Of a stretch of 25,440 nucleotides of DNA, positions 8,282-25,440 are shown piece after piece (position 1 is the stretch's first letter; every line of letters starts with the position of its first letter). Below the pieces are notes generated by a model. That model was not told where the DNA came from, did not search any database, and saw only the letters and a list, made by a program, of their open reading frames with translations. This DNA comes from a virus (lineage: Duplodnaviria > Caudoviricetes), in the IMG/VR virus record IMGVR_UViG_3300025327_000654, positions 1 to 25,440 of that record; one strand, 5' to 3'. Made by a program: the position numbers and the translations under genes.

Positions 8282-9193
8282 ATGGCTAATCGTGCATTAT
8301 TTGGAGACATTTTGGAACCCGGTTTCAGGGAGATCTTTGATGACAGGTTCAAGGAAATCCCCATGAAGCTGGAAACCCTGCTTCACGTCAACGAAAGCGA
8401 CAAGCAGGATGAAAAAGATTCGGCCTTGTCCGGCTTCGGCTACCTGGATGAAACGAGTGAACAGGATAATATCAGGTATGAAGATCCGGTTCAGATGTAT
8501 GACATAACTTATACCCACAAGAAATTCACCAAGGGTTTCAAGATTTCTGAAGAGCTATATGAGGATGCCCTCTACAACAAGATGAATAAGAAACCGGCGG
8601 CTCTGGGTAGGGCTGCACGCAGGACGGCTGAATTCCATGCCGCCAAGGTCTTCAACAACGCTTTTGATACCACAGACCAGGGTGGAGACGCCAAACCCCT
8701 CTGCTCAATCAGCCATCCCCGTGCTGACGGTGGAACGGCTCAATCCAATGCCTCCTCGACTGGCTTGATTCTAAGTGAACCCAATTTGGAGACTGTTCGC
8801 TTGGCCGGTATCAAACTCTTGGACGACAAGGGGATGAAGATCGACATTGAGTTCGACACCTTGTTGGTTCCGGTTGATCTTGACAAGAAAGCCCACGAAT
8901 TGATTGATTCCGGCATGAGGGCGGGTACAGCCGACAACGACATGAACTACTACAAGGGGGCGTTCAGGATAATCAACTGGATATATCTGACTTCCACGAC
9001 AGCGTGGTGGCTGATTGATTCCAAGCTCCATGAACTCAACTGGTACTGGAGAGTCCGGGCTGAATTCAAACAGGATGACCAGTTTGAGAGTGGCAGCGCA
9101 TTGTTCAAATGCCGTGAGAGATTCTCTAAAGGGTTCTCCGACTGGAGGGGCGTACACGGTAGCAAGGGTGACGGAGCCGCATACGCTTCATAA
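8282..9193 (+). CDS. Major capsid protein (HK97 fold, Mu gpT-like family)
   Basis: 303 aa; LEPG near the N-terminus, GFKISEELYEDALY, GGDAKPLCSISHP, LLVPVDL, YLTSTTAWWL and RERFSKGFSDWRG motifs typical of this family. Confidence 0.9.
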   Translation: MANRALFGDILEPGFREIFDDRFKEIPMKLETLLHVNESDKQDEKDSALSGFGYLDETSEQDNIRYEDPVQMYDITYTHKKFTKGFKISEELYEDALYNKMNKKPAALGRAARRTAEFHAAKVFNNAFDTTDQGGDAKPLCSISHPRADGGTAQSNASSTGLILSEPNLETVRLAGIKLLDDKGMKIDIEFDTLLVPVDLDKKAHELIDSGMRAGTADNDMNYYKGAFRIINWIYLTSTTAWWLIDSKLHELNWYWRVRAEFKQDDQFESGSALFKCRERFSKGFSDWRGVHGSKGDGAAYAS

Positions 9194-9198
9194 TTCAC

Positions 9199-9234
9199 AG
9201 GGAAGTTGACCCGCCTCTGTAGATCAACTTTCCT
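9199..9234 (+). promoter_or_regulatory. Stem-loop after capsid gene (possible attenuator or processing site)
   Basis: AGGGAAGTTGA (9199-9209) pairs with TCAACTTTCCT (9224-9234): 11 bp with one G-U pair and a 14-nt loop; no long U tract. Confidence 0.5.
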
Positions 9235-9257
9235 TAACCGTTCCACATTTGAGGCAT

Positions 9258-9680
9258 ATGTCTACAACTTTCGGATCAATCGCAGGACGACTTCCAACAG
9301 GAACCGTTAACCCGACTACTCCGGCCACGGGAGACGAATATTACAACACAACTTACAATCGCTGGATGCGGTACGATGGAGCTAAGTGGTCTGGGTTGGG
9401 ATTGACAACCTCTACTTCTACTTCAACTTCGACCTCTACTTCAACCAGCACCTCAACTTCAACGTCTACTACCACAACTTCCACTTCAACTTCTCAATCG
9501 ACCTCGACTTCGACGACTATCAGCACTTCTACTTCTCAAAGCACCAGCACCTCGATTTCGACTTCTACCTCGACAACCACAACCAGTACGTCTACATCAA
9601 CAACGACAACCAGCACATCTACTACCACGTCCACAACGACCAGTACGTCTACGTCTACATCGACATCGACGACTGTATAA
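9258..9680 (+). CDS. Mucin-like Ser/Thr-tail protein 1 (putative capsid fibre)
   Basis: ATG 9258 with GAGG upstream; 49-aa head (GRLP..P..GDEYYN..W.RYDG..W) plus a 91-aa tail with only 5 non-S/T residues. Confidence 0.85.
   Translation: MSTTFGSIAGRLPTGTVNPTTPATGDEYYNTTYNRWMRYDGAKWSGLGLTTSTSTSTSTSTSTSTSTSTSTTTTSTSTSQSTSTSTTISTSTSQSTSTSISTSTSTTTTSTSTSTTTTSTSTTTSTTTSTSTSTSTSTTV
9405..9677 (+). repeat. Degenerate (ST)n coding repeat
   Basis: ACN-TCN/AGY hexamer periodicity with varied synonymous codons. Confidence 0.9.
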
Positions 9681-9686
9681 TAAATT

Positions 9687-9962
9687 ATGGCAACAGGAAC
9701 ACATATCACCGATTTACAAGGGAGGCTCCCGGTAGCCACGACGGCTCCGTCTGACCCGATTTCGGGTGACGAATATTGGGATTCCGGCAAGAAAGCCTGG
9801 TTTCGTTACAGTGGCAATAATTGGCTGGGTTTCTGGTTTAGTTCAACGTCTACTTCGACTTCGACCAGTACGTCGACTTCAACCTCGACCTCTATTACGA
9901 CAACGAGTACTTCCACCTCGACATCTACCTCTATTTCTACGTCTACCACAACCAGTGGATAA
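9687..9962 (+). CDS. Mucin-like Ser/Thr-tail protein 2
   Basis: 51-aa head (THI..GRLP..PSDP..GDEYWD..WFRYSG..W) plus a 40-aa tail with 3 non-S/T residues. Confidence 0.85.
   Translation: MATGTHITDLQGRLPVATTAPSDPISGDEYWDSGKKAWFRYSGNNWLGFWFSSTSTSTSTSTSTSTSTSITTTSTSTSTSTSISTSTTTSG
9840..9959 (+). repeat. Degenerate (ST)n coding repeat
   Basis: S/T codon run with varied synonymous codons. Confidence 0.9.
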
Positions 9963-9964
9963 AT

Positions 9965-10255
9965 ATGGCACCTGATACACATTTTTCAGCAGTTGAGTCA
10001 AAGAGACTTGTGACGTTTAACGTCCAGCCTACCCAACCCCAGGATGGGCAGTATTACTATGACAATAAAAATGGTGCTCTCTGGGTTTACGACGCAAGGA
10101 CTACCCAGTGGTATTTTGCTCCCCTGTCTACAACAACTAGCACTTCAACCTCCACCACGACCACATCTACGTCCACGACGACAACCAGTACCTCGACTTC
10201 GACTTCAACCTCTACGTCGACATCTACTTCTACTTCTACTACCACAACCTTATAA
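9965..10255 (+). CDS. Mucin-like Ser/Thr-tail protein 3
   Basis: 54-aa head (THFS..KRL..PTQP..GQYYYD..LWVYD..W) plus a 42-aa tail that is all S/T except the last residue. Confidence 0.85.
   Translation: MAPDTHFSAVESKRLVTFNVQPTQPQDGQYYYDNKNGALWVYDARTTQWYFAPLSTTTSTSTSTTTTSTSTTTTSTSTSTSTSTSTSTSTSTTTTL
10127..10252 (+). repeat. Degenerate (ST)n coding repeat
   Basis: S/T codon run with varied synonymous codons. Confidence 0.9.
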
Positions 10256-10257
10256 AT

Positions 10258-10593
10258 ATGTTAGTAAAACACACATATTCACTAGCGGGAGTCTGGAAAC
10301 CGACAGACACGGAGAAGGAAAAAAAAATTTCAGGTTCCAATGAGGTGACCTGTCTGAAACTATCTTCGGGGGGCGGGGCTGCGACGGTGGCAATATACGA
10401 TGCGACAGTTGCCGCAGAAGCGACTCCCAGCAATTTAAAGTGGTGGCTGGATTGCTCCACCACGGACAACGATATCAACGTGTTTGCCAGCCCCCTCTCT
10501 TTTACCAAGGGGGTATATGCGGTTTGCGAACAGGGGTGGGATTTTAACCCAGTGGTTTGCATTTCAGTGATTGGTCGGGCAAATCCAGCTTAA
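10258..10593 (+). CDS. Small beta-rich putative virion protein (possible vertex/spike base)
   Basis: 111 aa, 2 nt after the previous stop; GGGAATVAIYDAT and PLSFTKGVY patterns resemble small jelly-roll head proteins (recollection, not searched). Confidence 0.6.
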   Translation: MLVKHTYSLAGVWKPTDTEKEKKISGSNEVTCLKLSSGGGAATVAIYDATVAAEATPSNLKWWLDCSTTDNDINVFASPLSFTKGVYAVCEQGWDFNPVVCISVIGRANPA

Positions 10594-10600
10594 CTGGTTC

Positions 10601-10628
10601 TTGCTTCTGGTTTTTTCTGGGGTATAAT
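10601..10628 (+). promoter_or_regulatory. Promoter for the glycosylation cluster (near-leaderless)
   Basis: TTGCTT (10601-10606), 16 bp, TATAAT (10623-10628); ATG 8 nt downstream; no SD. Confidence 0.6.
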
Positions 10629-10636
10629 GATTCATA

Positions 10637-11974
10637 ATGGGTGAGATCGTAAATCCTAAAAACTGCATAATTTTCACTTCGTTTTCTTCAGCAGACGAGG
10701 CCTACAGTCTCAATAGGGTTGTCATTGATCAGATTAAGATGTTCACCCGGAATGGGTACAAGATCAAAGTCATTGTGGCGGAGACGTTTGAACCAAAGGG
10801 TGAGTATCTGAATCCGAATGTAAAGATTGAAAGAATCCCCCAGGTTCCGGTTCACAATGAAGTGAAGAAGGATGAAAGTTTTGATCTGGATGTTCAGATG
10901 CTTCGAGACAAACTGTCGAAGATCCTAGAGGGGGCGGATGTAGTCTTGACTCACGACATTATCTATCAAAACTCTTGCTTGAAGCACAACATGGCTGCCC
11001 GGATGGTGGCGGAGAAGATGCCTAATATCCGCTGGCTGCACTGGATTCATTCTGCCACTTCCCCAGTCACGCTGGCGACCCTTCGTCCTTACTTTGAGGA
11101 CAAATACCTGGAAGTGATTGCTCAACCGTTTCCCAATTCCAGATATGTATTTTTTAACGATTACTCAATTCCCCGGATTGCGGAGAACTTTGGAGTATCC
11201 CAGGATCTGGTAAAAACGGTGCATCATCCTACCGACGTATATGAGTTTTTGGGGATTGGGGAAGAAGTAAAACAAGTTGCGGAGAAGTATAAATTCCTAG
11301 AAGCAGACGCTATCTGCATATATCCCGTAAGGCTAGACCGGGGGAAGCAGGTGGAGATGGTAATCAAGACCATGGCTGCCCTCAAGAGGCATGACATGTC
11401 TGTTCGGATCGTGGTAGTTGATTTTCACTCGACGGCGGGAGACAAAGTAACTTACCGGGACGACCTAAAGCAGTTGGGGATAGATAACAAGCTAGCTCAG
11501 GGAGAGTTGATCTTTACTTCGGAAGAAAAACCGGCGTGGAATTATGAAATACCCCACATTCAAGTCAGAGACTTTCAGATGCTTGCCAACGTCTTCATTA
11601 TGCCGTCCAGGTCTGAATCATACTCCCTGGTAACACAGGAGGCTGGAATGTTGAGGCAGGTGGTGGTAGTCAACTTTGATTTCCCCCCATTCAGAGACAT
11701 CTTTGGCCCGAACACGATCAACCGCAAGTTTAGTTCCAATATAGACATTATGAATGGTATGGATGGGGTAACTAATACGAATTACGGGCCGGGGGATGCT
11801 GCTCCTGAACAGAGAGCGGCTTACGAGAAAAAATACCATTATGAAACAGCGGGGATGATTAAATCCAAGTTACTTGATGGTGGCCCGATGCAGTTGTCCC
11901 AATTCCTGCGTAAGAACAGGAATTTGAACAAGGTCTTTAAGTCGGCGTTAGAGCCACTTTTGTTTGAGACATGA
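10637..11974 (+). CDS. Glycosyltransferase, GT-B fold (GT4-like)
   Basis: PVRLDRGKQVE donor-binding segment and FIMPSRSESYSLVTQEA (E-x7-E motif). Confidence 0.9.
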   Translation: MGEIVNPKNCIIFTSFSSADEAYSLNRVVIDQIKMFTRNGYKIKVIVAETFEPKGEYLNPNVKIERIPQVPVHNEVKKDESFDLDVQMLRDKLSKILEGADVVLTHDIIYQNSCLKHNMAARMVAEKMPNIRWLHWIHSATSPVTLATLRPYFEDKYLEVIAQPFPNSRYVFFNDYSIPRIAENFGVSQDLVKTVHHPTDVYEFLGIGEEVKQVAEKYKFLEADAICIYPVRLDRGKQVEMVIKTMAALKRHDMSVRIVVVDFHSTAGDKVTYRDDLKQLGIDNKLAQGELIFTSEEKPAWNYEIPHIQVRDFQMLANVFIMPSRSESYSLVTQEAGMLRQVVVVNFDFPPFRDIFGPNTINRKFSSNIDIMNGMDGVTNTNYGPGDAAPEQRAAYEKKYHYETAGMIKSKLLDGGPMQLSQFLRKNRNLNKVFKSALEPLLFET

Positions 11975-11975
11975 C

Positions 11976-12749
11976 ATGGAGTCTGCCTGTATTTTCGGAT
12001 ACGGAGTTGTTGGAAAGGCTACCGGCCTCTCCCTTGGAATCACTCGATACTTTGACCTCCAAGGGAGCAATATTACTCTCGAAGATGCAGCGAAATGCCG
12101 ATACATTTTTATATGTTTACCAACTCCTACTGGAGCAGACGGCAAGCAAGACACCGGATACATCGAAGACTACGTTAGAAAAATCTCGTCTTTTGGCGGA
12201 ACTCAAACATTTGTCATCCGATCTACGGTCTTGCCAGGTACAGTTCGCAGAATTGTGGGGAGAACTGGCGTCCAGAGTATCGTATCCAACCCCGAATTCC
12301 TCACTGAATCAACTTGGGAACAAGATGCTAGAAGACCAACTCTTGTTGTCGTTGGGTCCGATTCTGGTGAGGCAAGGGATGGAGTCGCCGGTCTCTACGA
12401 AAGTCGTTGGAAAGGTATCGCCATCTACAAAACAGACTCAGTTACAGCGGAAACGATTAAATACGGCCTCAACTCGTTCTTTGCCACGAAAGTCGTCTTC
12501 GCTAACAGCATCTTCGATCTTTGCCAAAGAGAGAAAGCTAATTACGAGACCGTCAAAAAGGTTCTGGAATCTCATCCGTGGGGCAGTAAAAACCATTTTA
12601 CGATCTGGCATCAAGGCGGAAGGGGGGCAGGCGGAAAGTGCCTGAAGAAAGACGTGCAAGCATTTGCCTACTTCTCCGACAACCCGTTTTTCAGATTGGT
12701 GGACGCCTTGAACCAGGAGTTACTTACAAAATATCCTAAAGAAAAATGA
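11976..12749 (+). CDS. ugd: UDP-glucose/GDP-mannose dehydrogenase family protein lacking the C-terminal domain
   Basis: GYGVVG, CLPTP, RSTVLPGT, NPEFL, catalytic K in ETIKY and catalytic C in GGKCLKKD; ATG 11976 preferred. Confidence 0.9.
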   Translation: MESACIFGYGVVGKATGLSLGITRYFDLQGSNITLEDAAKCRYIFICLPTPTGADGKQDTGYIEDYVRKISSFGGTQTFVIRSTVLPGTVRRIVGRTGVQSIVSNPEFLTESTWEQDARRPTLVVVGSDSGEARDGVAGLYESRWKGIAIYKTDSVTAETIKYGLNSFFATKVVFANSIFDLCQREKANYETVKKVLESHPWGSKNHFTIWHQGGRGAGGKCLKKDVQAFAYFSDNPFFRLVDALNQELLTKYPKEK

Positions 12750-12961
12750 CAGCCAATTATACTGATGAGGAAGTAGTTAGGGCGTTGAATTTATATAAGA
12801 GTGGCTTAACGGCAAGAGAGGTATACAAAGAACTTGGGGAAAAATCATCTATTCGTTCTTTTTCTCGTCTCATCAGTAGGTGGATGAGAATGGCGGGTGT
12901 TTCCCATAAATACAACTTTCATCGCTGGGACAAGATATCTAAGGAGGTAAAAAATGAATGA
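12746..12961 (+). CDS. Small helix-turn-helix protein
   Basis: YTDEEVVRALNLYKSGLTAREVYKELG...ISRW pattern; ATGA overlap with the upstream gene. Confidence 0.7.
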   Translation: MTANYTDEEVVRALNLYKSGLTAREVYKELGEKSSIRSFSRLISRWMRMAGVSHKYNFHRWDKISKEVKNE

Positions 12962-14066
12962 TAATTGGGAGTGGAATACAAACGAGCCGACACCTAATCC
13001 CCCCATGCCACCAGGAGCGGAAACGGGAGCAAACATCCATGACCCGGAACTGGTGTCCATAATCATCCCGGTCTACAATCGAGGCTACGATGTCTTCCAC
13101 TATACCGGCAACTGTATCGGATCGGTGCGGGAACACACCGACAATCTGGTGACTCCTTACGAATTGATCGTGGTTGATAACGGATCTCCGATTAAGATGA
13201 AGAACCTATCTGACTGGAAAGCGGACAAGGTTGTCACTAACCAGGAAAACAAGGGCGTGGCGTATGCTTGGAACCAAGGAATTAGAGTGGCTAGGGGTGG
13301 TTACATTTGTCTTCTAAATAACGACACGATGGTCTTTGACCACTGGCTGGAAGACCTGAAAAAGTTTGTTGACGGTGGGATTCTGGATTTTGTGATGTCC
13401 CATCCCATGTATGGCGATGCCTACGCCAGGGCAACCGACTCGACCTTGAAACGAGCCAAATGGCTAGATAAGTCATTGCACGATTCTGTATCCGACTTTC
13501 GGGATTTTGCCTGTGTACTGGCAAAAAAGGATCTTTACGATGAAGTGGGGCTTTTTGATGAACAATTTACCCTTGGATACGGCGAAGACCTGGACTTTTT
13601 GAAGCGGATGGACAAAGCCGGTAAAACGTACGGATCTACCGAGTTAGTGCCGATATTCCACATTATCGGAGCTACCAGTCACGGTATGCCGGAGATACCA
13701 GAGTTGATGAACAAAAACAGGGAGTTGCTGAAGAGTAAATGGGAAAACACAGACCCGAAAATGGTCATAAAAGAGAAAGTCTGGGATATCAAGGAAGAGA
13801 AAAAAGAAGAAGTTTGGGGTGAAGATGTTCAACCTGCTTCTGGGCCAGCGGAAGACTCCCCCCTGGTTCGCTGTGCTTCCACCGGCGACAAGGTTTTCTT
13901 CCTGAAAGAGAGCCAAGCTAGTTGGGTGACCAACCCGGAAGTGTTGGAAGCCCTGGGATATGGTTGGGGAGATATTAGGACAGTTAGCCAGGAAGAATTT
14001 TACAAACTTCAGTACGGGCCACAAATTACGATGGAGAACGTGAAGGAGTATGCAAAAAAAGACTAA
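12954..14066 (+). CDS. Glycosyltransferase family 2 with an extra C-terminal domain
   Basis: VSIIIPVYN, VVDNGS, AWNQG, LNND, GLFDE and GEDLD motifs; SD AAGGAGG. Confidence 0.92.
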   Translation: MNDNWEWNTNEPTPNPPMPPGAETGANIHDPELVSIIIPVYNRGYDVFHYTGNCIGSVREHTDNLVTPYELIVVDNGSPIKMKNLSDWKADKVVTNQENKGVAYAWNQGIRVARGGYICLLNNDTMVFDHWLEDLKKFVDGGILDFVMSHPMYGDAYARATDSTLKRAKWLDKSLHDSVSDFRDFACVLAKKDLYDEVGLFDEQFTLGYGEDLDFLKRMDKAGKTYGSTELVPIFHIIGATSHGMPEIPELMNKNRELLKSKWENTDPKMVIKEKVWDIKEEKKEEVWGEDVQPASGPAEDSPLVRCASTGDKVFFLKESQASWVTNPEVLEALGYGWGDIRTVSQEEFYKLQYGPQITMENVKEYAKKD

Positions 14067-14080
14067 ACGGGGGTATATTT

Positions 14081-14860
14081 ATGCCTAGATTCAGTATACT
14101 TACGCCTGTCCACCTCTGGAATGAAGAACGAAGGGATCAACTATTCCGGGCCATCGAGAGTGTCAAAAAACAGACATTTCAGGATTACGAACACATCATC
14201 GTAAACGACGGTTCTACTCTTGAAGTAGAAATTCCAAAAGATGAGAAGACGGTAGTTTTGAATCAGGTACATTTGGAGCGGGTGGTGGCCTACAATCTGG
14301 CCATGGAAAACGCCAAGGGAGAGTGGTTTGTCTGCCTGGATTCAGACGATGAATTAGACCCGCAATATTTAGAGAAGTTTAACGAGGCCATTGAGGCAAA
14401 TCCAGAATTCAAACTTTTCAATTGCGGGTCTAGATATGTTCACAAGAATGGCAGTATTTCTGTCCGGGGGCCATTTAGGCCGCCAGAAAGAGAGGTCGGA
14501 CATGAAGAATTTGGGGGAGCAAACATAGTTAACGGGACGTTTGTCTGGCATCGGTCTTTATATGACGAGATGGGTGGTTTTCCCCCAGCTAAGGTAGAGA
14601 ATGTAGACTGTACGGAAATTAATTACGGCGGTGTTAGGGATTTGTATATGACAAGTCCTTGGGACTTTTCCGCCATGGCCCAAATTGAGTTCCCAGAATT
14701 GAGGAAGCATTATTTCATTGACCGGGAAAACGAGCCAGACAAAGCTATAAAAGAATTGGGGAATCCCTGGGGCCAGGATCATTATTTGTTCTATAAGTAC
14801 ACTCGTAAATACCGCACTTTCCCGTTTGAAGACAACCTTTATATCGTACATCCCCGCTAA
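14081..14860 (+). CDS. Glycosyltransferase family 2
   Basis: FSILTPV, IIVNDGS and AKGEWFVCLDSDD (DxD). Confidence 0.9.
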   Translation: MPRFSILTPVHLWNEERRDQLFRAIESVKKQTFQDYEHIIVNDGSTLEVEIPKDEKTVVLNQVHLERVVAYNLAMENAKGEWFVCLDSDDELDPQYLEKFNEAIEANPEFKLFNCGSRYVHKNGSISVRGPFRPPEREVGHEEFGGANIVNGTFVWHRSLYDEMGGFPPAKVENVDCTEINYGGVRDLYMTSPWDFSAMAQIEFPELRKHYFIDRENEPDKAIKELGNPWGQDHYLFYKYTRKYRTFPFEDNLYIVHPR

Positions 14861-14874
14861 AACATGCAAGGCGT

Positions 14875-15642
14875 ATGATTCCTGAAACAATCGACATTTT
14901 TATAACCGCATATCTGCGCCCCCAGTTTACGGACAATACCATCCAATATCTGCGTGAAAGAACGAAGCACAAATACCGATTAGTCGTTATCCACTTCGGG
15001 GGAAATGAGCAAGTCTTGGAGAAACACGCCGACGTGATTGACTTAGTAATTGAACCCAGTCGGATAAACGGCAAGAAGACCGTAGTCAACCTTGGCATCC
15101 ATTCCGCCTGGAACCTAGCTTTGGCCAACGCCACTTCTAGGTATCTCATAACAACGGACAACGACATCTATGTCCCCGATCTAACGCCAGACTGGCTTAC
15201 CCAACTAGCGACCTTCCTTGACGAGAGGGAGGAGTACGGGGCGATCTCGCTTCACCCGCACGTGTTCATTGGTGCGGCTGGTCTGGATCACAAAGACGCT
15301 GGCTTGCCGGATGTGGTCGAGAGGAATATGTGCGGAGCCGTGATGCGGATTATGCGACTGGATGCCGTCATTAAGGCTGGGGGATGGGAACACAAGTTAG
15401 ATCCACGGAGAAATCACGAGGAGAGGACAATTTGCTCTAGGTTGCAGACGATTGGGTACAAGGTCGGTATAACACCCCGAATCAGGGCATACCACCCCTT
15501 TGGAAAAACAACCGGGGGGAACTGGGGATACGCAAAGTGGTTCACTCCCCAGTTGCAAGGTCACACTCCAGAGTTAGAACAATATGTACAACAGTTCGAC
15601 AACCAAGACGCTTATGATTCAAAAAATTGGATGCCGAAATGA
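14875..15642 (+). CDS. Glycosyltransferase family 2-like (GT-A)
   Basis: IDIFITAYLR, AWNLAL, TTDND (DxD) and EERTICSRL. Confidence 0.85.
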   Translation: MIPETIDIFITAYLRPQFTDNTIQYLRERTKHKYRLVVIHFGGNEQVLEKHADVIDLVIEPSRINGKKTVVNLGIHSAWNLALANATSRYLITTDNDIYVPDLTPDWLTQLATFLDEREEYGAISLHPHVFIGAAGLDHKDAGLPDVVERNMCGAVMRIMRLDAVIKAGGWEHKLDPRRNHEERTICSRLQTIGYKVGITPRIRAYHPFGKTTGGNWGYAKWFTPQLQGHTPELEQYVQQFDNQDAYDSKNWMPK

Positions 15643-16463
15643 TTCAACAATCTGACTTATCAATAATTATACCCGTCTGGGGTAAAAACCCGGAAGAGAG
15701 ATATGCCCTGAAAGAGAGTTTGACCTCTTTAGTGGAAACCTGTGAATGTCCGATTGTGGTGGCTCTGAACGGCGGTTTGACGTTGCCAGACGAGATTGAC
15801 AAGCACGGGGGACAAGTAACTACTGTGGAGATTGATGGCCAAGGACAATGTAAGGCAGTAAACGCCGGTGTGAGATTCACCGACACGCCTTGGATAATGG
15901 TTACGAATGACGACATGATATACCCGCCGGGATGGTTTGAGAAATTAACGGAATCGGAATCAATGTGTATCTCTCCCCGATTGGTCGAGCCCAGACAGGG
16001 AGCCCCGACATTTGGCGTATGTTTCTGTGGTGGAGCAGGCGGAGACTTTGACAAAAAGAAGTGGTTGGACTGCGCAAAAGAATACAAGGGGTTTGGGACA
16101 TCAAAGGGGTTCAATCTGCCGTTTTTAATGAAGAGGGAGCTCTGGGACACCATCAAAGGATATGACGAGAACTACGATCCCTTTGGATCAAATGGGGATT
16201 CAGATTTGGAGTACAAAATAAGACTGGCTGGGGTTCAACCAATGCAGAATACCGATTGTGTTGTTTACCACTTCTCTCAAACAAGTGGAACATTTCATCC
16301 CGACAACCGTTCTTACTGGGATCACAACTGGCACTACTTCATTTCCAAGTGGGGGTTTGAGAGGGCAAGCTCTCCAGCTATCTGGACAGCAGACTTTGAA
16401 ATACCAATGGACAAACTTAAATACAGGCCGGAGTGGATGGGCAAATATGGATCTATACAATAA
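15639..16463 (+). CDS. Glycosyltransferase family 2
   Basis: LSIIIPV, AVNAG, TNDD, GYDENY, DSDL and VYHF; ATGA-coupled start at 15639. Confidence 0.9.
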   Translation: MIQQSDLSIIIPVWGKNPEERYALKESLTSLVETCECPIVVALNGGLTLPDEIDKHGGQVTTVEIDGQGQCKAVNAGVRFTDTPWIMVTNDDMIYPPGWFEKLTESESMCISPRLVEPRQGAPTFGVCFCGGAGGDFDKKKWLDCAKEYKGFGTSKGFNLPFLMKRELWDTIKGYDENYDPFGSNGDSDLEYKIRLAGVQPMQNTDCVVYHFSQTSGTFHPDNRSYWDHNWHYFISKWGFERASSPAIWTADFEIPMDKLKYRPEWMGKYGSIQ

Positions 16464-17001: not shown

Positions 17002-17003
17002 CA

Positions 17004-17960: not shown

Positions 17961-19057
17961 AACACATTCCACTGTTCTGGCCCCACGTTACGGATTCTAT
18001 GCGTGAAGCCGTGGCTGCAACCCTGAAGACCAGGTGGATCGGTCAGGCCCACCAAGTGGATGAGTTTGAACAACAATTCCAGTCGGTTTTTCAGACATAC
18101 CCTGCGGTGGCCGTGAGTTCCGGTACGGCGGCTCTCCACCTGGCATATATTCTGGCTGGCATCAAGGATGGCGATGAAGTAATTTCCCCCGTTTTTACCT
18201 GTACTGCCACCAACATTCCCCTTTTGTATCAACGGGCAAAGATAGTGTTTGCCGATGTACAGGCCGATACCCTGAACATAGACCCGGAGGATGTTGCCAG
18301 AAAAGTAAATGAAAAAACCAAGGCCATTGTCTGTGTCCACTACGCTGGGTTGCCATGTGACATGGGTGGGTTACAAGCGATTGCCAAGAAGTGGAATATT
18401 CCCATAATTGAGGACGCCGCCCATGCCTACGGAGCGAAGTACCACGGCGTTCCGGTTGGGGGGATGAGTGAGTTTACTTGTTACTCTCTACAGGCCATCA
18501 AGACCATAACGACAGCTGATGGGGGTGTGTTGACTATTAAAGATCCAACCCTAGTCGATAAGGCTAAAAGGTTGAGGTGGTTTGGACTGGAAAGAAAAGC
18601 TGGGTTCAGGGCGAACTGGGAACAGGACATAACTGAAGTTGGGTACAAGTACCAGATGACGGATATATCTGCCTCGATGGGAAAGGCGGCACTGGGGGAA
18701 CTGGGCAGGATTCTCCAGTACCGTCGCCAGTTGTTTACCCGATATTCGGAACGACTTGCAAGCATCGAAGGAATATCCGTCATTAAAGGAAAGTACAATT
18801 ACACACACGGTGTATGGATACTAACCGTACTCGTGGAAAATAACCGTGAAAGTCTCATGAAAAAGTTGAGTGAAAAAGGAATAGAGAACGGGTTAGTTCA
18901 CTTTAGGAACGATCAGTACTCAATTTTTGGGGGGAAGAAGTTGGATCTGCCCAACATGAACGCTCTGGAGTCGAAATACCTAGTGTTGCCCCTTCACATG
19001 AACATGACCCTTGAGGACGTGGATTATGTTTGCGATAATGTAAAGGAGGGTTGGTAA
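17948..19057 (+). CDS. DegT/DnrJ/EryC1/StrS PLP-dependent sugar aminotransferase
   Basis: SSGTAALHLA, VHYAG, IEDAAHA, SLQAIKTITTADGG (PLP lysine) and LPLH. Confidence 0.95.
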   Translation: MDNIKHIPLFWPHVTDSMREAVAATLKTRWIGQAHQVDEFEQQFQSVFQTYPAVAVSSGTAALHLAYILAGIKDGDEVISPVFTCTATNIPLLYQRAKIVFADVQADTLNIDPEDVARKVNEKTKAIVCVHYAGLPCDMGGLQAIAKKWNIPIIEDAAHAYGAKYHGVPVGGMSEFTCYSLQAIKTITTADGGVLTIKDPTLVDKAKRLRWFGLERKAGFRANWEQDITEVGYKYQMTDISASMGKAALGELGRILQYRRQLFTRYSERLASIEGISVIKGKYNYTHGVWILTVLVENNRESLMKKLSEKGIENGLVHFRNDQYSIFGGKKLDLPNMNALESKYLVLPLHMNMTLEDVDYVCDNVKEGW

Positions 19058-19629
19058 TGACAGCAGAAGATGTAATCAGGGCTTGCTCAAAAATTCCATC
19101 ATCGGTTCACGAACCGGAACAGCGACTGTGGTGGGAAAAACTTCATGATTTGCCTGGACATCCGGTTATTGTGGACTTTGGTACTGGACACGGTAAGTCT
19201 GCCGCTTCTCTGGCTTTGTCTTGTCCACAGGGTATGGTATACACTTTCGATCCTGGCTTGCCGTATATCAACGCTGGATGCGATGAGCTGTGCTATGAAG
19301 AAGAAACCAAGAAGTTCATAGCTGATACCGGAGCCGTCAATGTTGTTTTTACCAGGGAGTCGTCTCTGGAAAAAGGGTGGCCAGGGGCAAATATCGACGT
19401 TTTGAACATAGATTCCGATCACACTTATGAAACAACCCTGCTGGAAGTAGGTAGGTGGGTTCCCCTGGTTAAGCCTGGTGGGTATATTTTCTTGCACGAC
19501 TGGGAACATCCCCGATGTCCGGGGGTAAGACAGGCCTGGGATGAATTGGTGCCATCTAAGATCAAAGCTGAATTCCAGTACGCTACTCAAGCCGGTGAGA
19601 TTAAATGTGCGTGGTCAATAAAGCTATGA
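19057..19629 (+). CDS. Class I SAM-dependent methyltransferase (Methyltransf_24-like)
   Basis: VDFGTGHGKS, IDSDHTY and LVKPGGYIFLHD; SD AAGGAGG before ATG 19057. Confidence 0.88.
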   Translation: MTAEDVIRACSKIPSSVHEPEQRLWWEKLHDLPGHPVIVDFGTGHGKSAASLALSCPQGMVYTFDPGLPYINAGCDELCYEEETKKFIADTGAVNVVFTRESSLEKGWPGANIDVLNIDSDHTYETTLLEVGRWVPLVKPGGYIFLHDWEHPRCPGVRQAWDELVPSKIKAEFQYATQAGEIKCAWSIKL

Positions 19630-20477
19630 AATGTGTTGTGAGTGGAAGTAGGGGTTTCTTAGGGTCTAATCTTGTCAAAAGGCTGGAGAGCGACGGTCAC
19701 GAAGTAATCGGATGGGATATTGTGGACGGAAACGACGTGTGTGGATCTCTTCCGAAGATTATAGACGTTGATGCCGTATTTCACCTAGCTTGCCCGGTTA
19801 ATCCTGCAAACTATGAAAGTGTCGCTATAAAAACAATAAACGCCAGTTCGGTTGGTACCCTGAACATGATCTATTTTTCGTTGCTTAACCACGCTAAATT
19901 TCTTTATGTTTCATCTTCCGAGGTATATGGAAATGTTTACAACGAACCGTACAAGGAGAGTGACGACGTGACTGTAAACTCAACTGGGTTGAGATCTTTC
20001 TACGATATCTCTAAATTATTCGGAGAAGTTACCACCTTGAATTATCACAGGTACGAAGGGGTGGATGCCAGAATAATCCGACCCTTCAATATTTATGGGC
20101 CAGGGATGAGGATAAACGATACCAGGGTTATTCCGTCTTTCATGCGGAGGATTAAAGAGGGATTGCCAGTGAAAGTGACTGGAGAAGGGAAAGCTACTAG
20201 GACATACTGCTATGTTGACGACTTCATTGAAGGCATGGTCAGGGCCATGTGGCATCCGAATACCAATGGAGAGATATTTAACTTGGGAACGTCGGAATTG
20301 ATGTCTGTCAAGGATCTGGCTTTTCTCATGGCGGCTGAAATTGAATTTGCACCGGCTCGGGCGGATGAGCAGAAAGATCGGATGCCAAACCTCGACAAAG
20401 CCAAGAAGATTCTGGGTTGGGAACCTAAAGTTAACCTCAAAGGGGGATTGGAGGAAATGTGGAAAAGTTATCCGTAA
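19626..20477 (+). CDS. NAD-dependent epimerase/dehydratase, UDP-glucuronate decarboxylase-like
   Basis: GSRGFLG, FHLACP, SSSEVYG, RSFYDISK (YxxxK), RPFNIYGPGM..DTRVI and TRTYCYVDD; ATGA-coupled start. Confidence 0.88.
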   Translation: MKCVVSGSRGFLGSNLVKRLESDGHEVIGWDIVDGNDVCGSLPKIIDVDAVFHLACPVNPANYESVAIKTINASSVGTLNMIYFSLLNHAKFLYVSSSEVYGNVYNEPYKESDDVTVNSTGLRSFYDISKLFGEVTTLNYHRYEGVDARIIRPFNIYGPGMRINDTRVIPSFMRRIKEGLPVKVTGEGKATRTYCYVDDFIEGMVRAMWHPNTNGEIFNLGTSELMSVKDLAFLMAAEIEFAPARADEQKDRMPNLDKAKKILGWEPKVNLKGGLEEMWKSYP

Positions 20478-21388
20478 TTATCGCCACCATCAACGATTCG
20501 ATTGCTACCAATTTAACGATTGCCCAGATTTTGGTACAGCTAGAAAGAGACAGAATGGATTATGAAATTATAGTTGTGGATAACGGCAGTGAAGAAATAG
20601 AGAAGATGAACCTACATGAGTTCATCCGGTTCCACAAAGACTTTCCCATTTCCTACCACAAGTATCCAATACAAGGAACCATTCCCCCCCACTCGTATGG
20701 GGTGACAGTTGCCACGGGAAAGTACATAACGATGCCTGATCCCCATTTAATCTTTTCTCCCAGCTACTTCAGAACCATGATTGATTCTTTGAACAACCTG
20801 GGGGCGAAAGTGGTGTTTTCCCCGTTTGGGGTGGGTTGTATTACCAAACGTGACGGGGAGTACATTTGTGAAAGCCACTTAATTAGTCCCAACCCCTTTG
20901 GCCGGGTCAACTCGATTGGCCGAAGTTGTCTACGGGACATTCCCCCGTTTCCCATTCCATCGAATACCCTGTCTGGCTTTGTGGCCGAAAAAGACTGGAT
21001 GATGAAAATTGGTAACTTGTTCCCCGAAGCGTTTGAAAAGTCCGGTGGACATACGGCGGAGAGTCTGATGTTGGGACTGACCACCTGGATGTTTGGGGGC
21101 AAGTGCTGGGCTGAACCAAGTGCAGTTATTGACCATCCCATGTATCGAAACGGTCACGGTGGTGGTAGGAACGCCAATATGTGCCTGTCGATGGCGACTG
21201 GAGCGTATATCCTGGGTGGTCAGAAGTATCTAGACGACATGGAGTACAACTATGGCAAGTTTGTTGCCGGGGATTTGGAGGAGATACCCGCAGTTGCGTA
21301 TTCAGCCAGAAAGTATGTTATAGACAACGCCAAGTATACCCTGGACGAGTTAGTTAATAACTGGGAACAGATTAAAAATGAAAGCTAG
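20459..21388 (+). CDS. Glycosyltransferase family 2-like
   Basis: LSVIIA, YEIIVVDNGS and ATGKYITMPDPH; GTG start with GGAGG. Confidence 0.82.
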   Translation: MEKLSVIIATINDSIATNLTIAQILVQLERDRMDYEIIVVDNGSEEIEKMNLHEFIRFHKDFPISYHKYPIQGTIPPHSYGVTVATGKYITMPDPHLIFSPSYFRTMIDSLNNLGAKVVFSPFGVGCITKRDGEYICESHLISPNPFGRVNSIGRSCLRDIPPFPIPSNTLSGFVAEKDWMMKIGNLFPEAFEKSGGHTAESLMLGLTTWMFGGKCWAEPSAVIDHPMYRNGHGGGRNANMCLSMATGAYILGGQKYLDDMEYNYGKFVAGDLEEIPAVAYSARKYVIDNAKYTLDELVNNWEQIKNES

Positions 21389-22514
21389 AAAGAACTGTAG
21401 ATTGTGCAATTCCAGGAATCTGGTGCCGGTGATTGATCTGGGAGATACCCCCCTAGCCGGTACATTCCTAAAAGCCGAAGAAGTGGGTAGGGAGAAATAC
21501 TATCCCTTGCAAATATCCAGGTGTCGGGACTGTTCTGCCGTTCAACTCCTGCATACGGTTCCCAAGGAAGAACTATTCCAGTCGTTTCTATCCTCCGTGG
21601 CCATGACTAAACACTTTGAAGACTACGCCGAGGAGTTGGTTAAAAAGGATCTGATTAGGCCAGGGAACTTTGTTGTAGAAATTGGCAGTAACGATGGGGT
21701 TCTATTAAAACCGCTGAAAGATTTGGGGATGAAGGTCTTGGGAATTGACCCCATCGAAAGCATCGCCAGGATTGCCAGAAAGAAAGGAATCAAGACCATC
21801 AACGAGTTTTTCTCCTGGGAATTGGCTAAGAAGATCGGCAAGAAGGCCGACATGGTTTTAGCCAACAACGTCTTCGCCCATATTGACGATCTGGATGAAG
21901 TGATGAAAGGAATCCAGGTCATGCTTAAAGATGACGGGCTATTTGTTTTCGAGGTTCATTTCCTGGTAGACATGGTTGAGAAACTCCAATACGACACCAT
22001 TTACCACGAACACATGAACTACTTTTCCATAGCTTCTCTGGCACCATTCCTCAAAAAGTACGGATTTGAGATTCTGGAAGTCAAACGGATTCCTACTCAT
22101 TCGGGGTCGATTCGGGTCTACGCTAAACAATTCCCCCCGGAGAGATTGAGGACTTTTGTGGACGATGTTGTCCAAAGAAGATTGGAATTGATGAACCTTC
22201 TCTTTGATTTGCGAGACAAAGACAAAACAATCGTGGGCTATGGAGCCGCTGGTCGGGCCAATACCCTGCTTAATTATTGCCGTATTAACGAAAACTTGAT
22301 TTCTTGCATCATTGACGAATCACCGGCTAGGTATGACAAATATACTCCAGGTTCCCATATCCCGGTGTTATCACCTGACAAAGTAGATTTGAAAGCGGTG
22401 GATTACGTCTTGATTTTAGCCTGGAATTACAAAGACCAGATTATACAGAAAGCCAGGGATGTTGGTTTCAAGGGCAAGTTTATTGTGCCATTGCCCAAGG
22501 TAGAAATAATATGA
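21378..22514 (+). CDS. NDP-sugar C-methyltransferase (zinc-binding N-terminus, TylC3/TcaB9-like)
   Basis: CRLC...CRDC, EIGSNDG, IYHEH, HSGSIR, GYGAAGRANTLLNY and LAWNY. Confidence 0.92.
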   Translation: MKARKNCRLCNSRNLVPVIDLGDTPLAGTFLKAEEVGREKYYPLQISRCRDCSAVQLLHTVPKEELFQSFLSSVAMTKHFEDYAEELVKKDLIRPGNFVVEIGSNDGVLLKPLKDLGMKVLGIDPIESIARIARKKGIKTINEFFSWELAKKIGKKADMVLANNVFAHIDDLDEVMKGIQVMLKDDGLFVFEVHFLVDMVEKLQYDTIYHEHMNYFSIASLAPFLKKYGFEILEVKRIPTHSGSIRVYAKQFPPERLRTFVDDVVQRRLELMNLLFDLRDKDKTIVGYGAAGRANTLLNYCRINENLISCIIDESPARYDKYTPGSHIPVLSPDKVDLKAVDYVLILAWNYKDQIIQKARDVGFKGKFIVPLPKVEII

Positions 22515-23200
22515 ATTTGATAATCTCCCCCATTTACAACGCTATTTTAGAAACGGCGGCGATGGTAAACGCTATCGACCAGTTCAGTACCATGCCGTTT
22601 GTCCACATCCTAGTTGATGACAACTCAACCATCCCCGTTTCGGAGAATGTCCGGGCAACAAAGAATCGCAGGGTTTTGAGGATTAACAGCGACGTACCCG
22701 ACTGGATTCACAAAAGCCAGTTGGGACAAGCTGTCCAGCTTGGATATGACTATGCCACGCAGGAATGGATGAACGAGATCCCCAAACAGCCAATCGACCA
22801 TGTATTTCTGATTGAAAGCGATGTGGTAGTCAAGGCTGACTGGGACAAGAAGCAAATTGACCTGATCCCAACCCTACCGGAAGATTGGGCCAGTTTGGAT
22901 GTGCAATCGGTGGATACGGACGGTAGGTTGACCTACCCGACTGTAATCTCTCCCCGCCACGGTTTCGTGCGAGACGACCTAGAACACCAGCACTATGCTG
23001 ACTTCCAATGCACGTTATTCAACCCACTCGTGTTACCAGAGAAGAGTGGGGTGAAGTTTTCCGATTTTCGCAGTCATTTTGATATTCTGTGGTCGAGGAA
23101 GATTGAAGAGTTGACCGGCAGGAAGCACTACCGCACCATGTTAATTAACGCCTTTCACTACGGCTCGGCAAGCCGGAGTACCCTGCCTAAAGAACTATGA
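22511..23200 (+). CDS. Glycosyltransferase family 2-like (GT-A)
   Basis: IISPIYN, ILVDDNS and LIESDV; ATGA overlap. Confidence 0.75.
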   Translation: MNLIISPIYNAILETAAMVNAIDQFSTMPFVHILVDDNSTIPVSENVRATKNRRVLRINSDVPDWIHKSQLGQAVQLGYDYATQEWMNEIPKQPIDHVFLIESDVVVKADWDKKQIDLIPTLPEDWASLDVQSVDTDGRLTYPTVISPRHGFVRDDLEHQHYADFQCTLFNPLVLPEKSGVKFSDFRSHFDILWSRKIEELTGRKHYRTMLINAFHYGSASRSTLPKEL

Positions 23201-24138
23201 AAATTGCAGTTGCAGACAACAACGGGGGCAAATTCTCCATGATGATTATGGATCACTGGAGAGACAAGGGCCATGAAGTTAAGTGGGAGCCTGGAGCCAA
23301 CCCCGCTCTCATGGACTGGGCAGATTTGTACTATGTCGACGTTTGGGATTCCAACATCCACTGCCTACTTAACTACTGCCGGGACAACAACTACACTCCC
23401 AAGTGTAAGTTCGCCGTCCGGCCCATCGACTGGGATATCTGGGTACGGGGTGTGAGGTGTCAGTGGATGGTGGACATGATCGACTATTTCATCTGCATTT
23501 CTCCATTTCTCTGGCGATGGCTTCTGGCCGAGAAAGACGACGCTACCGGGCAACCGATCCAGTGGGGTGACAAACTGCATATGATCCAGCCGGGGTTGGA
23601 TCTGGACAAGTTTCCTCTGAAGACCAGTGAGACAGACGGATTCCAAGTGGGCATGGTAACGGGCAATATGTGGGAACTCAAGGGGCCGATGTTGGGACTG
23701 AACATCTTTGCCGACCTAGCTTTGAAAGACCCTCGATGGAAGCTACATATCCGGGGTCAGTTGTCCGAAACCCAGTATCACAAACTCATGTATCCCCACT
23801 TCATTAAGAGCCGGGGGTTAAAAGACCGGGTGACGATCCACGGTAACTACGACGACATGAACCGCTTTTACGAGCAGGTTGACTTGCTTCTGGTTCCATC
23901 TTTGAAAGAGGGGTTTTCATATGCTACCGCTGAAGCTATGTCCAAAGGCATCCCGTGTGTCATCAACAACTTTATGGGATCGGAAGAGATATGGCCGAAA
24001 GAATGTATCTACAATACTTCCAGCCAGGCTATCGCTCTCATTGAAAGGGGCGGGTGTATGAATTACCGAAAATATATGGAAGACCATTACTCTGCTAAAA
24101 AAATGTTTAACGAGTACGATAAATTATTAGGCACATGA
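23197..24138 (+). CDS. Glycosyltransferase, GT-B fold (GT4)
   Basis: PGLDLDKF, ELKG and LLVPSLKEGFSYATAEAMSKG (E-x7-E). Confidence 0.92.
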   Translation: MKIAVADNNGGKFSMMIMDHWRDKGHEVKWEPGANPALMDWADLYYVDVWDSNIHCLLNYCRDNNYTPKCKFAVRPIDWDIWVRGVRCQWMVDMIDYFICISPFLWRWLLAEKDDATGQPIQWGDKLHMIQPGLDLDKFPLKTSETDGFQVGMVTGNMWELKGPMLGLNIFADLALKDPRWKLHIRGQLSETQYHKLMYPHFIKSRGLKDRVTIHGNYDDMNRFYEQVDLLLVPSLKEGFSYATAEAMSKGIPCVINNFMGSEEIWPKECIYNTSSQAIALIERGGCMNYRKYMEDHYSAKKMFNEYDKLLGT

Positions 24139-24722
24139 AAAAAGATATCGCTGTTTCATTAGATGACTTTTGTGATGACTACAAGAATAACGCCATGAAC
24201 TACCTCTGGTGGCTAAAATCTAAATATCCCACGTTTTGTGTGACCCTATTTACTATTCCCAACCGTATATCAGGTTCAGCTTTGTGGCTGATGCGGCAAA
24301 ACTCCAGTTGGATGCAGTTTGCCGTCCACGGCTGGAATCACGACCTAGAAGAAGTCATGGCCTGGGACATAGACGAGTGCAATGGGGTGCTGGATGCTTG
24401 TGAGGCAATGGGGGTCTTCAAAAAGGGTTTCAAGGCTCCCAACTGGGCTATCTCTGAAACAATGATGGACGTATTGGCCAGGCGGGGATATTGGCTGGCT
24501 TCTAAGGAAACCATGAACTTTCCGGGATTAAAGGAGTTTCCGCTTTCACACCCCTGGTGTATGCACGGCCATACCTGGGATTTAAACAATCCAGATCCGT
24601 CTTTCAACAATGGCATCCGACAATGGATTGAGGAGAAGGGGTTACCATTTGACGAGAACACCAATTTTCACATGATTGACCACGTTATGAATCCCAAAAA
24701 CAACCCCGTAAGTCATGGATAA
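24135..24722 (+). CDS. Polysaccharide deacetylase-like protein (NodB/CE4 or DUF2334-like)
   Basis: SLDD, VTLF, VHGWNH, GFKAPNW and HGH motifs. Confidence 0.75.
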   Translation: MKKDIAVSLDDFCDDYKNNAMNYLWWLKSKYPTFCVTLFTIPNRISGSALWLMRQNSSWMQFAVHGWNHDLEEVMAWDIDECNGVLDACEAMGVFKKGFKAPNWAISETMMDVLARRGYWLASKETMNFPGLKEFPLSHPWCMHGHTWDLNNPDPSFNNGIRQWIEEKGLPFDENTNFHMIDHVMNPKNNPVSHG

Positions 24723-25440
24723 ATTGAACACCATTGTCGTTTTCCCCGTCATTCCCGATTACATCGAGAAGTTTCTCCAGACCCTGCATGAGTTTACCCC
24801 TCCCAACTTTCAAGTGATTGTTGTCGACCAGACAAAAGACGGTATATACGACGTGGTCAAAAGGTTTAACCCCGAAGTTTATATACGGGTCTACCGAAAC
24901 ATGGGTTTTTCCAAGGCTGCCAACATGGGGGCGAAACTAGCGACCACGAAATATGTGACCATTGCCAACGACGATATCGAGTTCATCAATATGAAATGGT
25001 GGCAGGGAATTGAGGATACGTTTGCCCAGGCCGACAATATCATCGCCGTTAATCCCAACTCACCCAAGCTGGCTATGTGGGGATATGGGTGTGACCACTA
25101 CACCCGATTTGAGATTCTTGACCAGGAAAGCTGTAAAACCGAGGCCGGTTATGATTATCTTATTAAAGGTGACTATTCTAATCACGAGAACGCTACTTTG
25201 GTGGACAAGGGAGAAGTCAAGCCGATTCCCAAGAGTTTTCCTTTGAAGCAGGCCGGAGTGGTAGATGGTATCGCCACCTGGTTCACCGTTTTTGATCGGG
25301 AAAGGTACTGGAAACTGGGTGGGTTTGAGGAGAAGTATTATCCCGGTGGTGGAGAAGACCACGACATCTGCGCCCGTGCCTACAGTAAGGGATACCGCAT
25401 GGTGGGGACTATGAAATCCTGGGTTTGGCATCACTGGTCG
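24715..25440 (+). CDS. Glycosyltransferase family 2, 3'-truncated by the window (not in ORF track)
   Basis: Hand translation MDKLNTIVVFPV..VIVVDQ..NMGFSKAANMG..IANDDIE..GGFEEKYYPGGGEDHD..VWHHWS; open to the window end. Confidence 0.9.
   Translation, partial: MDKLNTIVVFPVIPDYIEKFLQTLHEFTPPNFQVIVVDQTKDGIYDVVKRFNPEVYIRVYRNMGFSKAANMGAKLATTKYVTIANDDIEFINMKWWQGIEDTFAQADNIIAVNPNSPKLAMWGYGCDHYTRFEILDQESCKTEAGYDYLIKGDYSNHENATLVDKGEVKPIPKSFPLKQAGVVDGIATWFTVFDRERYWKLGGFEEKYYPGGGEDHDICARAYSKGYRMVGTMKSWVWHHWS

Follow-up and report, generated by a model that had tools for sequence, protein, structure and literature searches.

What does a pathway of ten glycosyltransferases (GTs) do in the late region of a tailed phage, a short distance downstream of small proteins that end in almost pure runs of serine and threonine? 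The locus that raises this question lies in IMG/VR virus record IMGVR_UViG_3300025327_000654 (Duplodnaviria; Caudoviricetes), of which positions 1 to 25,440 were analysed; this whole stretch of 25,440 nucleotides is referred to as the window. It represents a tailed-phage late region with a terminase (1340-2869), a P22/SU10-like portal (2805-5090) and the major capsid protein (8282-9193), followed by three genes with terminal Ser/Thr tracts, a small jelly-roll gene and a sugar cluster. The genes, their order, the predicted solubility of the products and the joint inheritance of tracts and enzymes are established. We consider it probable that the tracts, which appear portable between proteins, are O-glycosylated in the cytoplasm by the soluble cluster and shown on the virion as a mucin-like brush.

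Ser/Thr tract genes and sugar cluster of the window

Behind the capsid gene, three open reading frames (ORFs) with paralogous N-terminal domains (N-domains) end in tracts that hold 86 + 37 + 41 = 164 Ser and Thr residues. This confirms a preliminary description of the locus, which had counted about 165 hydroxyl residues in three near-pure Ser/Thr tails after the capsid gene. The head-proximal genes are as follows.

7694..8278, + strand: probable capsid cement/decoration protein, 194 aa (basis: position, directly upstream of the capsid gene)
8282..9193, + strand: major capsid protein (Pfam PF25209, above cut-off, and PF10124; PHROG 371, major head protein)
9258..9680, + strand: tract protein 1, conserved N-domain of ~50 aa and a 91-aa tail with 86 Ser/Thr (ORF, composition)
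9687..9962, + strand: tract protein 2, paralogous N-domain and a 40-aa tail with 37 Ser/Thr (ORF, composition)
9965..10255, + strand: tract protein 3, paralogous N-domain and a 42-aa tail with 41 Ser/Thr (ORF, composition)
10258..10593, + strand: small jelly-roll protein, 111 aa, probable capsid vertex/cement subunit (predicted structure, pLDDT 90.5)

The start of tract protein 1 is taken as the ATG at 9258, with a TTG upstream at 9249. Five to six Ser codons and all four Thr codons are in use in the tracts, and same-residue codon pairs at i/i+2 are identical in only about one third of cases (22/66, 8/28 and 12/32 across the three tracts). On account of this codon variety the tracts are protein-level features, and an origin by DNA slippage is excluded. 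The tract proteins contain no hydrophobic, signal or membrane segment by hydropathy. The capsid protein itself has no Ser/Thr tract, which is compatible with a single modified capsid residue; the tracts sit on separate genes. A hairpin of -14.2 kcal/mol (9199-9234; no shuffle control) separates the stop codon of the capsid gene from tract protein 1 and could reduce expression of the minor proteins downstream.

The sugar cluster comprises 18 genes from 10637 to the window end. The preliminary description placed the GT run next after the tract genes; the 111-aa jelly-roll gene and a 43-bp gap between it and the cluster intervene. Within the cluster, 14 of 17 junctions overlap and the largest gap is 14 bp (longest ORF starts used), so that the run is mostly overlapping, as described, but not gap-free. 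The cluster encodes seven GT-A and three GT-B transferases, a sugar-nucleotide dehydrogenase, an epimerase/dehydratase, a DegT aminotransferase, a C-methyltransferase, two other methylases, a weakly matched deacetylase and one unknown protein. All ten transferases of the earlier count are found, but only eight are above the Pfam cut-off (six GT-A, two GT-B); those at 22511-23200 and 17004-17960 are below it. Record G001 covers the window and differs from it at 27 bases; its cluster continues for another 189 bp past the window end, is followed by non-GT genes and spans 15.0 kb in total.

10637..11974, + strand: lead GT-B (GT4-like) glycosyltransferase, core gene and module marker (PF00534)
11964..12749, + strand: short nucleotide-sugar dehydrogenase, N-terminal and central domains only (PF03721, PF00984; GGKC motif, residue 223)
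12746..12961, + strand: 71-aa ORF (no Pfam or PHROG match)
12954..14066, + strand: GT-A glycosyltransferase GT2a, variable gene (PF00535; 22/44 GT4 loci within 6.5 kb)
14081..14860, + strand: GT-A glycosyltransferase GT2b, core gene (PF00535; 44/44 GT4 loci)
14875..15642, + strand: GT-A glycosyltransferase GT2c, core gene (PF00535; 42/44 GT4 loci)
15627..16463, + strand: GT-A glycosyltransferase GT2d (PF00535)
16447..17001, + strand: S-adenosylmethionine (SAM) methyltransferase, probably a sugar O-methyltransferase (PF13578, weak CmcI and TylF; PHROG label 'DNA methyltransferase')
17004..17960, + strand: probable GT-B glycosyltransferase, weak (PF13524 E 1.8e-4, below cut-off)
17948..19057, + strand: DegT/DnrJ sugar aminotransferase (PF01041 E 2e-94)
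19051..19629, + strand: second SAM methyltransferase (PF13578)
19605..20477, + strand: NAD-dependent sugar epimerase/dehydratase (PF01370)
20459..21388, + strand: GT-A glycosyltransferase GT2e, non-core, weak polypeptide GalNAc-transferase likeness over residues 5-226 (phmmer, profile)
21378..22514, + strand: sugar C-methyltransferase, branched-sugar synthesis (PF08484, PF08421, PF13489)
22511..23200, + strand: probable GT-A glycosyltransferase, weak (PF00535 E 0.0043, below cut-off)
23197..24138, + strand: GT-B (GT4) glycosyltransferase (PF13692, PF00534; also PF20706 GT4-conflict)
24135..24722, + strand: probable carbohydrate deacetylase, weak (PF01522 E 0.009, below cut-off)
24715..25440, + strand: last GT-A glycosyltransferase, cut by the window end, 304 aa in G001 (PF00535, PF02709)

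The dehydrogenase is about 260 aa long in the window and in relatives; the usual C-terminal domain has no Pfam match and the GGKC motif is retained. None of the cluster proteins in the window attains a 19-residue hydropathy mean of 1.6, and none has a membrane-grade segment. A Pfam scan of 93 proteins from G002, G005 and the early region of G001 returned no flippase, lipid-priming transferase, integrase, TET/JBP, DNA methylase or polymerase family; this set excluded head genes, tract segments and ORFs shorter than 70 aa, and many of its proteins had no match, with many early genes unannotated. SecA2/SecY2-type export and wall-anchor families are likewise absent from the window proteins and the 93 scanned.

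A mis-assembly or prophage boundary near 10.6 kb had been named as the case in which the cluster would prove to be joined host DNA. Single contigs span this junction in three of the four sequencing runs examined, and depth is even. Together with the recurrent gene order described below, this rules out a mis-assembly or host boundary. For the 20 sequencing runs in which the stretch occurs, the labels are soil, sediment or groundwater; 12 of these runs may have been the source of the DNA analysed, and no RNA run is among those listed.

Joint occurrence of tracts and transferases

The layout recurs across an uncultured podovirus-like family. With the capsid protein as query, 48 loci were recovered at 53-100% identity; a capsid profile found 326 relatives, 80 of which were retained. 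The order capsid, tract genes, GT4, dehydrogenase, GT2b, GT2c is seen in relatives wherever the sequence covers it. Where at least 6 kb of downstream sequence is available, GT2b accompanies GT4 in 44/44 loci and GT2c in 42/44; the other transferases are variable.

Tracts were scored as 12 Ser/Thr in 14 residues, or the Ser-Pro equivalent. From 129 distinct capsid sequences, 61 with less than 5.5 kb downstream were excluded. The remaining 68 loci, which include those reached through GT4, comprise 37 with a Ser/Thr tract and GT4, 28 with neither tract nor transferase, two with a Ser-Pro tract and another enzyme pair, and a single locus (L157) in which GT4 is present and the tract is on a gene upstream of the capsid. 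That gene (2904-3407), from an unrelated phage, holds the pre-capsid position equivalent to 7694-8278. The preliminary description had proposed a database search for co-occurrence of Ser/Thr-tail genes beside capsid genes with GT clusters: among 61 loci found by capsid queries only, 31 combine a Ser/Thr tract with GT4, 28 have neither, two pair a Ser-Pro tract with the other GT pair, and none is discordant. In the 42.8 kb of G011 (88% complete), a close relative that lacks the module, neither GT2 nor a tract on the coding strand is present.

Tract and enzymes also change together. A Ser-Pro clade of four rows (SH-aLRT 100) is nested inside the Ser/Thr group; it carries its tails on the jelly-roll orthologue, and GT4 is absent from its place in the three members with enough DNA. 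By profile, polypeptide GalNAc-transferases (GalNAc-T) are the 13 best PDB sequences for the clade's two GT-A enzymes (best E 3.2e-11); a profile built from three sequences found nothing. This GalNAc-T-like family stands beside Ser-Pro tracts in six of seven loci.

Tracts are found in 66 of 80 GT4 loci in the DNA examined, and their carriers differ across relatives: the small N-domain, the jelly-roll protein (a Ser/Thr or Ser-Pro tail in L009, L011, L032, L039 and L048), a decoration-like gene, and large proteins encoded between the cluster and the adaptor. In GT4 phages of other architectures (G006, G007, G009, G010, L157) the tracts are on other proteins. The acceptors had been described as capsid fibres; in relatives they extend beyond the head, with far larger tracts encoded in the interval that separates the cluster from the head-tail adaptor. 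G002 encodes a protein of 1,122 aa with a 1,083-residue tract, and the total of tract Ser/Thr is 1,511 in G002, 1,268 in G005, 817 in G004 and 162 in G003. An SU10-type adaptor follows the cluster in G002 and G005. These two genomes are complete, with terminal repeats, and G004 is 93% complete; the cluster takes up 27%, 27% and 24%, respectively, of their 48-49 kb. Overall, the preliminary interpretation is partly supported: its core claim, that the cluster glycosylates dedicated Ser/Thr acceptors, is backed on comparative grounds by joint presence and absence, the joint Ser-Pro swap, soluble enzymes and the lack of a host-boundary artefact.

Tract composition varies by clade from Thr-rich to strongly Ser-rich (L015, L073, L074, L162); in L162, whose GT4 is the most divergent, Ser outnumbers Thr by 73 to 9. 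One large tract protein contains a methyltransferase domain insert (L057:10658-13219, in G005), and another has a SET-like N-terminus by eye (L020 record, G004 29995-30930). At the loose ends around 9487-10212, other contigs with repeats coding for Ser/Thr occur in runs X13, X14 and X19; one of them has a depth of 6.8, compared with 7.7 for the phage, a hint that the uncovered part of the phage genome contains additional tracts. A GT-A gene in G005 (L006:14639-16549) contains an intein with a LAGLIDADG domain. Genes at L136:17088-18113, L143:14276-15352 and L048:14619-15563 are, by eye, S-adenosylmethionine synthetase-like and would supply the methylases.

A promoter scan of the window gave no excess over shuffles (6 observed, 7.7 expected). 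A TATAAT at 10623-10628 lies eight bases before the lead GT4 start, and this motif occurs within 90 bases upstream of 22/71 GT4 genes, compared with 3/56 for GT2b and 0/46 for GT2c, a distribution hinting at a separate host-type promoter for the cluster. Ahead of the capsid gene, 7151-7624 encodes a family-conserved protein with a CxxC-type finger and a shared C-terminal motif; the gene precedes the head genes in the window and lies between the tract genes and GT4 in most relatives. A lytic transglycosylase gene (5390-6166), located between the portal region and a scaffold-like gene, has a GC3 of 0.37, below that of its neighbours, and is patchy among relatives.

Candidate priming enzyme, putative virion location and rival explanations

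In the mechanism that we propose, the dehydrogenase, epimerase/dehydratase, aminotransferase and C-methyltransferase would convert host nucleotide sugars into uronic, amino-deoxy and branched sugars. A priming transferase would then attach the first sugar to Ser/Thr without a lipid carrier. The core trio GT4/GT2b/GT2c would account for an inner glycan that is conserved, and an outer glycan specific to the strain would be added by the variable distal transferases together with the O-methylases and the deacetylase. The lead GT4 is a candidate for the priming enzyme, as it is the first cluster gene and is absent where the tract turns Ser-Pro; GT2b or GT2c is equally possible. Its predicted structure (pLDDT 90) is of the generic GT4 type; a chlorovirus GT comes 19th in the fold list, and no PDB sequence matches the lead GT4 at E 0.01. 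For 20459-21388, the top phmmer matches in the PDB are GalNAc-T, albeit weak (E 0.013 and 0.024); by profile, chondroitin synthase comes first and GalNAc-T sixth of eight.

The N-domains of ~50 aa, or in relatives a jelly-roll, decoration or tail-region protein, would anchor the tracts to the particle. Location on the virion is inferred from gene position and from the fusions in relatives; calling the tract proteins fibres, as in the preliminary description, is an interpretation from position and weak domain leads. Atlas places the N-domain at 0.83 to a tail-trimerisation cluster, and the protein at 7694-8278 nearest, among named clusters, to phage cement families (0.85-0.86, as a lead only). 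In fold comparison against the PDB with VIA-align, the jelly-roll model gives two middling top matches, XepA (Z 8.3, rmsd 4.7, 102 aligned) and the turret of the haloarchaeal virus HFTV1 (Z 8.3, rmsd 2.7, 94 aligned); in a viral fold search it matches mostly unnamed or uncharacterised phage proteins. PDB sequence searches with profiles of the N-domain, jelly-roll, decoration protein and GT4 gave nothing meaningful, and a complex prediction of three decoration chains with three tract N-domains scored 0.00, which is informative neither way.

Several observations weigh against glycosylated, virion-borne tracts. The locus table overstates independence, as 27 of the 28 module-free loci are distant and the tree (a quick IQ-TREE run) needs only about three label changes. 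Fourteen of the 80 GT4 loci have no tract in the examined DNA: in three a tract lies on another part of the contig (L131, on the contig of L089; G006, two tract proteins; G007, four), seven are fragments with packaging-region genes of the G006/G007 type (among them G008, with no tract in 31 kb and 37% complete), and the other four are fragments. G417, the seventh locus of the GalNAc-T-like family, has no tract in 46 kb, with the gene near the contig end and the record 61% complete. The known protein O-transferases GtfA (Z 12.3, rank 27, rmsd 17.6, 323 aligned) and SdgB (Z 11.6, rank 35) do not lead the GT4 fold list, and the nearest cellular relative found for the lead GT4 is a mannosylglucosylglycerate-synthase-like gene with a small-molecule acceptor (23% identity, HHalign probability 99). 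For GT2b and GT2c, polysaccharide and elongating enzymes rank first. Evidence for a virion domain in the tract proteins is weak, with Pfam leads to DUF7360 in 8/83, DUF2793 in 5/83 and Mtd_N in 3/83 N-domain members; in the available part of one report, DUF2793 phage proteins are frequently annotated as fibre or structural (PMC5026251). Moreover, the family is uncultured and known here from genes alone.

The cluster could instead remodel the host surface against other phages, acting on lipopolysaccharide, capsule, pilin or S-layer glycans, with the tracts as unmodified flexible spacers. This is how cyanophage clusters of similar size are interpreted in the published text available (PMC7824862, PMC12801897), the core GT-A enzymes are most like polysaccharide transferases, and the distal genes vary as in O-antigen loci. 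We nevertheless regard it as unlikely: the cluster encodes no membrane protein, no flippase or lipid-priming enzyme is among the scanned proteins, two complete genomes yielded no integrase, the cluster is embedded in the late structural block, and the joint change of tract and enzymes would go unexplained. A related possibility, that the tracts are glycosylated and the glycoproteins act outside the mature particle, as assembly aids, as released decoys or as products remaining on the host, accounts for that joint change. It draws on the indirect case for virion location and the weak links of the N-domain to fibre families. Against it, the tract genes lie directly behind the capsid gene, relatives fuse tracts to decoration-like, jelly-roll and tail-region proteins, and the window proteins have no signal or membrane segment, and we rate it as quite improbable.

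Synthesis of a free oligosaccharide or small glycoside, as osmolyte or polymer, with the tracts unmodified or otherwise modified, would fit the distant relationship of the lead GT4 to a mannosylglucosylglycerate-synthase-like gene. Ten transferases with O- and C-methylases are more than osmolyte pathways need, no export system was found, and the link to the tracts would be left unexplained; this appears very unlikely. We give still less credence to hypermodification of phage DNA with sugars against restriction, in which the position beside the tract genes would simply be inherited. Phage GTs often glycosylate DNA, according to the accessible part of one report (PMC12619734), both methylases carry the PHROG label 'DNA methyltransferase', one GT4 has a match to GT4-conflict in Pfam, and many early genes are unannotated. 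By Pfam, however, the methylases belong with O-methylases of the CmcI/TylF type, the enzymes of the Ser-Pro clade are similar to peptide transferases, and the 93 proteins, with many early genes unannotated, contain no TET/JBP, hydroxymethylase, DNA methylase or polymerase family by Pfam. Of the rivals, only the one with glycoproteins outside the particle explains the joint swap of tract and enzymes; the host-surface, free-glycoside and DNA explanations do not.

Known systems, host and biological meaning

The serine-rich repeat adhesins Fap1, GspB and PsrP are O-glycosylated on their Ser-rich tracts in the cytoplasm, stepwise and without a carrier, by an adjacent GT cluster with GT4-type priming (GtfA/B; SdgA/B). 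The window resembles these systems in its Ser/Thr-rich acceptors beside a predicted-soluble GT cluster. In contrast, an accessory Sec system, a signal peptide and a wall anchor are missing, its acceptors, which are small phage proteins, have tracts rich in Thr, and the lead GT4, although it shares the GT4 fold, does not appear to be a GtfA orthologue (GtfA rank 27). By analogy, the module would work like adhesin-type cytoplasmic O-glycosylation and is outside that family, as export and anchor are lacking. Among solved structures, polypeptide GalNAc-transferases (GT27) come closest to the enzymes of the Ser-Pro clade (E 3e-11) and are weak top matches of 20459-21388; the phage enzymes, however, are soluble and match in the catalytic domain alone, and the core enzymes of the window are of another type. 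Chloroviruses and mimiviruses glycosylate their particles in the cytoplasm with virus-encoded sugar synthesis, transferases and methylases, but are giant eukaryotic viruses with other acceptors. The membrane flippase, polymerase and lipid-priming transferase of serotype-conversion and O-antigen clusters (GtrABC, Wzx/Wzy) were not found by hydropathy in the window cluster or by Pfam among the 93 proteins, and PHROG 'GtrB-like' matches are weak GT2-domain matches.

Among tailed phages, mycobacteriophage GTs (Che8, Corndog, Myrna; Freeman et al. 2023) glycosylate the C-termini of capsid and tail-tube proteins, as stated in the available portions of two reports (PMC12363180, PMC12619734). These phages are similar in having their own GTs linked to structural genes. 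Their acceptors, on the same partial text, are capsid and tail-tube subunits and the effect is antibody shielding, whereas here the acceptors would be separate long Ser/Thr tracts, known from genes alone. The present module further differs in its ten GTs with sugar-synthesis and tailoring genes, about a quarter of the genome, and in a lead GT4 that has no match in 50,697 GenBank phage records; the best GenBank phage match to the capsid protein is 36%. Relatives of the lead GT4 number 842, and the longest contig among the 120 listed is 63.6 kb. Cyanophages also combine many GTs with epimerases, as in S-SCSM2R with 13 GTs (PMC12801897) and P-SSM2 with a 15-gene sugar cluster (PMC7824862). They are large myoviruses with a host-surface reading, and the accessible text of these reports does not mention dedicated Ser/Thr acceptors; here the genomes are of 46-49 kb and the cluster is in the structural block. 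The preliminary description knew of no tailed-phage system with dedicated Ser/Thr acceptors and a pathway of this size. Within the literature examined, the statement stands for the acceptors and fails for the size. The literature covered, by titles and abstract openings and with most subscription papers outside coverage, gave no description of dedicated mucin-like Ser/Thr acceptors in phages. Phage virion glycosylation is already known; dedicated mucin-like acceptors appear new within the literature examined.

Weak hints point to a host among the Patescibacteria: one binned contig, few Shine-Dalgarno-like motifs (6/23 starts; background 17%) and the habitat. The contig (L164, 4.1 kb, with capsid and tract gene) was found in a Ca. 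Zambryskibacteria bin by a GTDB profile scan, which also found a distant Cytobacillus prophage without the module; a single-protein GTDB scan was empty. The GT4 profile matched one of 401 genomes of the phylum of Ca. Zambryskibacteria, in a chromosomal gene of small-molecule type.

A role outside the cell, as shield or in recognition, is the most likely function of the putative glycans. They may form a hydrated, variable shield that limits proteolysis and sticking to minerals and decoys, or may serve extracellular recognition. Immune evasion in the manner of mycobacteriophages is unlikely in soil and groundwater. We see about equal grounds for and against a wider interpretation, in which widespread tailed phages, possibly infecting Patescibacteria, would have a true viral glycocalyx with up to ~1,500 Ser/Thr sites per gene set. 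It would be made up of portable mucin-like tags and an exchangeable glycan pathway, with tag and priming enzyme co-evolving, and in one lineage with relatives of the animal GalNAc-transferases that initiate mucins.

If this is true, glycosylation of phage particles would be no mycobacterial oddity. Environmental phages, which do not encounter antibodies, would invest heavily in it, with about a quarter of a 48-kb genome, and one may ask what use a sugar coat is to a virion in soil and groundwater. It would offer a second reading for phage GT clusters now filed as host-surface or DNA modification. The small, soluble, matched sets of enzyme and tag, including the GalNAc-transferase-like enzymes, would be testable in E. 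coli.

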